In this document: one piece after another, positions 10,350 through 12,319 of the stretch | Layout: every line of letters begins with the position of its first letter | Position numbering within the stretch: the first letter of the stretch is position 1 | From: Escherichia coli | Lineage (GTDB): Bacteria; Pseudomonadota; Gammaproteobacteria; Enterobacterales; Enterobacteriaceae | Length of the DNA: 64,000 nucleotides | Direction: 5' to 3' (one strand) | Assembly: GCF_036507355.1 (NCBI RefSeq) | Contig: NZ_AP027877.1 | Made by a program: the position numbers

Positions 10350-12319
10350 TAAGCAATCAATGTCGGATGCGGCGCGAGCGCCTTATCCGACCAACATATC
10401 AGGACGGAATGATCGCAATGAACATGTCGATGACAGAAAGAATAAAAGCAGGCAAGCTATTTACCGATATGTGCGAAGGCTTACCGGAAAAAAGACTTCG
10501 TGGGAAAACGTTAATGTATGAGTTTAATCACTCGCATCCATCAGAAGTTGAAAAAAGAGAAAGCCTGATTAAAGAAATGTTTGCCACGGTAGGGGAAAAC
10601 GCCTGGGTAGCCCCCCCGTCTATTTCTCTTACGGTTCCAACATCCATATAGGCCGCAATTTTTATGCAAATTTCAATTTAACCATTGTAGACGACTACAC
10701 GGTAACGATCGGTGATAACGTATTGATTGCACCCAATGTTACTCTTTCCGTTACGGGACACCCTGTACACCATGAATTGAGAAAAACGGTGAGATGTACT
10801 CTTTTCCGATAACGATTGGCAATAATGTCTGGATTGGAAGTCATGTGGTCATTAATCCAGGCGTCACCATCGGGGATAATTCTGTTATTGGCGCGGGTAG
10901 TGTCGTCATAAAAGACATTCCACCAAACGTCGTGGCTGCTGGCGTTCCTTGCCGGGTTATTCGCGAAATAAACGACCGGGATAAGCAATATTATTTCAGA
11001 GATTACAAAGTTGAATCGTCAGTTTAAATTATAAAAATTGCCTGATACGCTTCGCTTATCAGGCCTACAAATTCAGTGATCTACGTAGGCCGCATCCGGC
11101 GTGAACAAAGCGCAGAAACAAGCGTCGCATCATGCCTCTTTGACCCACAGCTGCGGAAAACGTGCTGGTGCAAAACGCAGGGTTATAATCATCAGCCCAA
11201 CGACGCACAGCGCATGAAACGCCCAGTCCATCAGGTAATTGCCGCTGATACTACGCAGCACGCCAGAAAACCACGGGGCAAGCCCGGCGATGATAAAACC
11301 GATCCCCTGCATAAACGCCACCAGCTTGCCAGCAATAGCCGGTTGCACAGAGTGATCGAGAGCCAGCAGCAAACAGAGCGGAAATGCGCCGCCCAGACCT
11401 AAACCACACACCATCGCCCACAATACCGGCAATTGCAGCGGCAGCCAGATAAAGCCGCAGAAACCCACCAGTTGTAACGCCAGTGCCAACAGCAAAAGTT
11501 TGCGCCGATCCTGATGGCGAGCCATAGCAGGCATCAGCAAAGCTCCTGCGGCTTGCCCAAGCGTCATCAATGCCAGCAAGGAACCGCTGTACTGCGCGCT
11601 GGCACCAATCTCAATATAGAAAGCGGGTAACCAGGCAATCAGGCTGGCGTAACCACCGTTAATCAGACCGAAGTAAACACCCAGCGTCCACGCGCGAGGA
11701 GTGAAAACCACGCGAACCGGAGTGGTTGTTGTCTTGTGGGAAGAGGCGACCTCGCGGGTGCTTTGCCACCACCAGGCAAAGAGCGCAACAACGGCAGGCA
11801 GCGCCCACCAGGCGAGTGTTTGATACCAGGTTTCGCTATGTTGAACTAACCAGGGTGTCAGGGCGGCACCAAGCCCACCGCCGCCCATCAGAGCCGCGGA
11901 CCACAGCCCCATCACCAGTGGCGTGCGCTGCTGAAACCGCCGTTTAATCACCGAAGGCATCACCGCCTGAATGATGCCGATCCCCACCCCACCGAGCAGT
12001 GCGCTGCTAAGCAGCAGCGCACTTTGGGGGTAAAGCTCACGCATCAATGCACCGACGGCAATCAGTAACAAACTGATGGCGACGCTGCGACGTTCGCTGA
12101 CATGCTGATGAAGCCAGCTTCCGGCCAGCGCCAGCCCGCCCATGGTAACCACCGGCAGAGCGGTCAACAGGGCAGCCACGCTAAAGCTCATTCCGCTTGC
12201 CTGGCGCAATTGCGGTAGCAGTGGCCCGACGGAGGTGAGCAGTGGTCGCATATTAAGACCAATCAGCACCAGAACCAGCAGCATCGTGAACGTCTTTTGA
12301 TGGTTACGCATGGCTGTCA

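Follow-up and report, generated by a model that had tools for sequence, protein, structure and literature searches.

An Escherichia coli lacA gene broken across three reading frames, very probably an inherited pseudogene

The results presented here indicate that the lacA gene carried by a 64,000-nucleotide stretch of an Escherichia coli genome (contig NZ_AP027877.1; hereafter the window) is very probably a true, vertically inherited pseudogene, whose reading frame was destroyed by two separate small mutations. In the proposed sequence of changes, replacement of AA (or AG) by a single C beside a run of six C at codon 65 would have yielded a run of seven C, and one base would have been lost from a run of six A at codons 122-124. 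No intermediate that would order these two lesions was found among the compared loci.

The window corresponds to the mhp-lac-cyn-cod-prp-yah-bet region of E. coli. The lacA locus sits between lacY and cynX, in the position of the third structural gene of lacZYA, which is the same place, after lacY and before the convergent cynX, that is occupied by the gene of the K-12 thiogalactoside O-acetyltransferase LacA (PDB 1KQA/1KRR/1KRU/1KRV). The window gene showed 98-99% nucleotide identity to intact alleles, and the repaired protein, a member of the LacA family by homology, aligned over residues 1-203 with PDB 1KQA (E=1.9e-135). This full-length alignment, the DNA identity of 99.0% to the TUM13936 gene and the position between lacY and cynX altogether mean that the identification of lacA is not due to chance. 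Relative to the intact orthologues found at the same locus, the gene is disrupted: it measures 610 nt, against 612 nt for all intact lacA among the best matches, and 13 internal stops appear when 10418-11027 is translated in a single frame. The features of the locus are the following:

10418..11027, plus strand: lacA pseudogene (galactoside O-acetyltransferase), 99.0% identical to the annotated TUM13936 lacA, with 2 single-base gaps
10418..10609, plus strand: lacA segment 1, codons 1-64, in the ATG frame, with the Mac capping domain (translation; Pfam PF12464 Mac, E=3.4e-12)
10610..10617, plus strand: lesion 1, G followed by C7 (alignments to intact alleles)
10612..10784, plus strand: lacA segment 2, codons 66-123, in the second frame (translation; weak Hexapep match)
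10649..10651, plus strand: premature TAG closing the start-codon frame (translation)
10782..10786, plus strand: lesion 2, A5 (A6 in all intact alleles)
10785..11027, plus strand: lacA segment 3, codons 124-203 and the native stop, in the third frame (translation; Pfam Hexapep, E=2.9e-12)
10810..10812, plus strand: TAA ending the frame of segment 2 (translation)

The first-pass annotation had described an acetyltransferase sequence split over three frames, and translation bore this out (codons 1-64, 66-123 and 124-203); the C7 and A5 runs lie at 10611-10617 and 10782-10786, exactly where it had placed them. The remaining genes of the operon are preserved:

4768-5850, plus strand: lacI, full length, no indel or internal stop
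5973-9047, plus strand: lacZ, full length, no indel or internal stop
9099-10352, plus strand: lacY, full length, no indel or internal stop

Within the lac control region, located between lacI and lacZ (context 4768..10352), one base differs from TUM13936, a G to A change at 5918 that falls in the spacer between the promoter -35 (5899) and -10 (5923) elements and is common to the clone-mate assembly GCA_905398585.1 introduced below. A promoter and terminator scan around lacA found nothing.

The two junctions are of a different nature. The earlier claim that both runs were one base too short holds for junction 2, where a clean deletion of one nucleotide turned A6 into A5 at the codons for Arg122-Lys123-Asn124, and fails for junction 1, where none of the intact alleles carries C8. 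In these, the site takes one of four forms, G-AACCACCC-G, G-AACCCCCC-G, G-AGCCCCCC-G and G-AACCTCCC-G, with codons 65-67 being GAA CCA CCC, GAA CCT CCC, GAG CCC CCC or GAA CCC CCC, so the C7 of the window is longer than the ancestral C run. Lesion 1 amounts to a net change of -1 nt in which the Glu65 codon was lost. The proposal that C8 together with A6 would represent the restored, intact gene was thus mistaken for junction 1, since an extra C would hold the frame and yet encode Glu65Ala (VAPPV). No such LacA was present in a collection of about 15 billion sequences, against 150 contigs with the wild-type repair (VEPPV); plain slippage from C8 to C7 was ruled out by the alignments and by this lack of a VAPPV protein.

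The backbone of the window lacA is of the TUM13936 type, but it has C at 10614 and T at 10826 and 10835, as found in the alleles with CCC CCC. A synthetic query was composed of the window's own lacA flanks and GAA CCC CCC (GAACCCCCC), and six or more complete genomes, all of them with an intact lacA, proved to carry this allele on the 172-nt window backbone at 100% identity. In this way, GAA CCC CCC appears to be the likeliest ancestor of junction 1, and lesion 1 would correspond to the replacement of two nucleotides by one, AA to C (or AG to C), beside the C6 run. The simplest path would lead from G-AA-CCCCCC to G-C-CCCCCC, which may alternatively be worded as the loss of one A plus an A to C substitution. 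A path of three independent hits on AACCACCC was also considered and set aside as unlikely: it would place three of six differences within 8 bp (chance about 0.008), and the discovery of the intact GAACCCCCC allele made it needless.

The consequences for the protein can be deduced from the frames. Only one product possesses a start codon, a stub of 77 aa comprising 64 native residues, which make up the Mac domain, and 13 out-of-frame residues, and it lacks Asn85, Ser111 and His115. These residues, together with Thr113, are encoded in segment 2, which has no usable start codon: the first in-frame start leaves less than 30 aa, and the ORF listing held no ORF of at least 30 aa in this frame. Segment 3 holds the C-terminal hexapeptide repeats and the CoA-binding part. 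Thus, in contrast with K-12 LacA, the reading frame is interrupted at two points, and the Mac domain, the hexapeptide beta-helix and Asn85, Ser111 and His115 are not joined in one continuous chain of about 203 residues. Galactoside acetyltransferase (GAT) forms a trimer of beta-helical subunits, at whose interfaces the active site lies, and the H115A mutant loses about 90% of activity (PMC12775004, from which the residue roles are also taken). In the window strain, the left-handed beta-helix that forms the trimer, with Asn85, Ser111 and His115, would not be made, and the strain should for this reason lack galactoside acetyltransferase activity. No polar effect is expected, since lacA is the last gene in the operon and cynX is convergent, so that nothing downstream is affected.

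Whether the lesions were inherited or introduced during assembly was addressed by seeking clone-mates through rare exact protein alleles and then comparing their DNA. The exact LacZ protein of the window was present on only 5-6 contigs. Among the corresponding assemblies, GCA_905398585.1 (L005/L045/L048) was 100% identical to the window across 15,047 bp, and GCA_016660925.1 (L006) differed by 2 SNPs and 0 gaps. Both carried GTAGCCCCCCCGTC and GAGAAAAACGG, that is, C7 at junction 1 and A5 at junction 2, so the same lesions were found in independent assemblies of the lineage. Direct lacA DNA was obtained from these two other assemblies only, as the Logan contig L007, which has SNP 1535 in common with L006, stops just before lacA. 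Moreover, the broken product was recorded as an 80-aa protein on 3 contigs, one of them a 4,643,937-bp chromosome in which it is named 'hypothetical protein VEE46_33570' (BED23589.1) and begins at an upstream ATG. L006 showed an additional CGG to TGG change at 10953, within the broken lacA, corresponding to Arg180Trp in the old frame. Three derived transitions (30505, 33294 and 35821) set the window apart from all its clone-mates and from the outgroup, and its BetT protein (betT, 49315-51348) was seen in this exact form on the window's chromosome alone; either the source isolate has diverged slightly from the rest of the clone, or a few substitution errors are present in its assembly. On comparison of their sequences, the isolates that carry the lacA lesions are distinct. 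Their assemblies are probably short-read ones, judging from their TPA labels, Logan sources and contigs of 61-79 kb ending at IS or repeat elements.

No close relative of the window was found among 5,426 complete RefSeq E. coli genomes, and two 25-kb stretches of the window reached at most 98.5% identity among the matches listed. YahO and PrpR were tried as clone anchors and returned only unrelated lineages, all with an intact yahN. Exact look-ups of the 131-aa YahN fragment and of the EhaA fragments of 1237 and 1259 aa gave no match, probably due to the choice of start codon or to a residue difference; lineage-specific YahL and YahI alleles were used instead to reach yahN and ehaA in the clone-mates. 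A 77-aa C-terminal LacA fragment, present on 14 contigs, was examined as a sign of a wider A5 lineage and discarded, since in these contigs the gene is cut off at the contig edge, or the assembly is heavily fragmented and of another backbone. A literature search for lacA pseudogenes returned nothing relevant.

As to the cause of the loss, lacA is dispensable for lactose growth, and relaxed selection would account for its decay. It is unlikely that the loss of LacA was itself selected in the clone. Two hits in one 612-nt gene, with lacI, lacZ and lacY left intact, and lesions fixed in all clone members seen, are what such selection might leave behind. However, two or more hits are also expected of neutral drift once a gene has been inactivated, and in L006 a third change, Arg180Trp, has been added. 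In addition, no convergent loss was observed among the fetched relatives, as lacA was intact in all nine loci with the same CynX protein, and the lesions were shared by none of the matches listed from the complete RefSeq E. coli genomes.

An assembly or base-calling error, in which lacA would be intact in the strain and the consensus would have dropped a base at each of two homopolymer runs, is a far less probable reading than inherited decay; the two had been regarded as equally plausible, and this parity is not upheld, decay being backed by the C7 and A5 of the clone-mates. Both junctions fall on homopolymers, and there are grounds for suspicion in that yahN and ehaA are also frameshifted at runs:

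25546-26216: yahN (LysE-family exporter), lesion at 25910-25913, C5 to C4 in CCCCCTGG, leaving fragments of 131 and 60 aa
44759-48741, minus strand: ehaA (autotransporter adhesin), lesion at 45037, T5 to T4 next to CCAGG

Errors of long-read consensus at homopolymers and at Dcm-methylated CCWGG sites have the same look, a base missing from a run, some of them beside CCWGG; nearly all indels relative to TUM13936 are bases missing from the window, and several are located beside CCWGG motifs. The C5 to C4 change in yahN fits this class of error. It is private to the window, since the run is C5 in four clone-mate assemblies, where yahN is intact and encodes 210 or 223 aa. The change arose either by mutation in this isolate or by an error of the consensus in a Dcm-methylated run, so the source assembly may not be error-free. 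Furthermore, the A6 to A5 change of lacA junction 2 was seen in two fragmented single-contig assemblies of unrelated strains (L028, GCA_045618185.1; L029, GCA_045618545.1), which look like uncorrected long-read assemblies and in which lacY and cynX are broken too; junction 2 is thus also a recurrent error site.

Nevertheless, the same C7 and A5 occur in a further two assemblies, which are separated from the window by SNPs, junction 1 contains base substitutions and not a change of length alone, and the C8 version of lacA was found nowhere. While an artefact should be missing from independent data of the same clone, as was the case for the C4 of yahN, the lacA lesions were present in them; because the private yahN lesion was exposed by the very same comparison, the test can separate inherited from assembly-specific lesions. 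The T4 lesion of ehaA was common to two clone-mates (L025 and L026), which makes it a second inherited pseudogene, in which the frameshift splits the protein into 1237 aa and an 84-aa fragment, cutting away the beta-barrel part at the C-terminus. Unlike the long-read class of errors, then, the lesions of lacA and ehaA were found again in other isolates that had been assembled independently. The same is true of an intergenic C7 at 34420 (34417-34423), which corresponds to CCCGCCCC in TUM13936: an interrupted C tract became a pure run, in the clone-mates as well, and this collapse is the same kind of change as that of lacA junction 1. The view that the window is riddled with homopolymer errors was also rejected, indels being few and the lacA and ehaA lesions being common to clone-mates. 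A survey of 46 reference genes revealed indels only in three genuine genes, lacA, yahN and ehaA, and in a doubtful yahH ORF spanning REP sequences; 41 of the 45 full-length reference genes had no indel.

Other observations concern the repeats and the far end of the region. REP-type tandem arrays are found at 17300-17560 and 36860-37240, the second of which is overlapped by the yahH 'gene', and the indels and SNP clusters at these arrays, which also appear between clone-mates, represent paralogous alignment noise. The homology of ipbA (a tyrosine invertase of the fimX/hbiF type, within 56313-58272) ends at 56695, and it is followed by an IS3-family transposase fragment (56714-57256, minus strand), IS1 InsA (57305-57580, minus strand), an integrase fragment and the CP4-6-like prophage genes yagJ-yagM. 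When converted arithmetically to window coordinates, the end of the clone-mate contig CAJPYR010000021.1 falls near position 56678.

Three of the four frame-breaking lesions (lacA junction 1, ehaA and yahN) have a Dcm CCWGG site at a distance of 5 bp or less:

10602-10617: Dcm-proximal lesion of lacA junction 1
25910-25917: Dcm-proximal lesion of yahN
45031-45040: Dcm-proximal lesion of ehaA

Such proximity applies to 4% (35/884) of the homopolymer runs of at least four bases (binomial P about 2.4e-4, calculated post hoc and with n=4), and two of the three Dcm-proximal lesions are real inherited mutations. There is a slim chance that the lesions are non-randomly placed in a meaningful way; very-short-patch repair synthesis by Vsr and Pol I at methylated CCWGG, seeding both indels and complex substitutions in neighbouring runs, would fit this arrangement.

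The weakest alternative, that lacA remains functional by means of recoding, be it frameshifting on the ribosome or slippage during transcription, or of reversible phase variation, is extremely improbable: the frame breaks do fall on mononucleotide runs, and in phase-variable contingency genes the frame is likewise set by the length of such runs, but the lacA tracts are short (7 and 5 nt, C7 and A5) and invariant in length across the window, L005 and L006, all from this clone, runs of greater length are required for efficient slippage in E. coli, recoding would need two independent corrections, one of the two lesions includes substitutions and destroyed the Glu65 codon, and the middle segment lacks an independent start.

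The lacA of the window is therefore best described as a vertically inherited pseudogene, and it is an ordinary, lineage-specific frameshift pseudogene. Like the clonal frameshift pseudogenes of E. coli and Shigella, it combines small indels at short repeats, a dispensable gene, fixation in the clone and the accumulation of further hits; in contrast to them, the window region shows no trace of massive decay driven by IS elements. From the practical point of view, the comparison settles an annotation, as the 80-aa 'hypothetical protein' of the 4,643,937-bp chromosome is the stub of a lacA pseudogene, and it provides a cheap test of decay against error, which goes from a rare exact protein allele to clone-mates and then to DNA comparison. 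For the biology of E. coli, this locus offers a further natural example of the dispensability of LacA in the wild, in a clone in which lacZ and lacY are retained.
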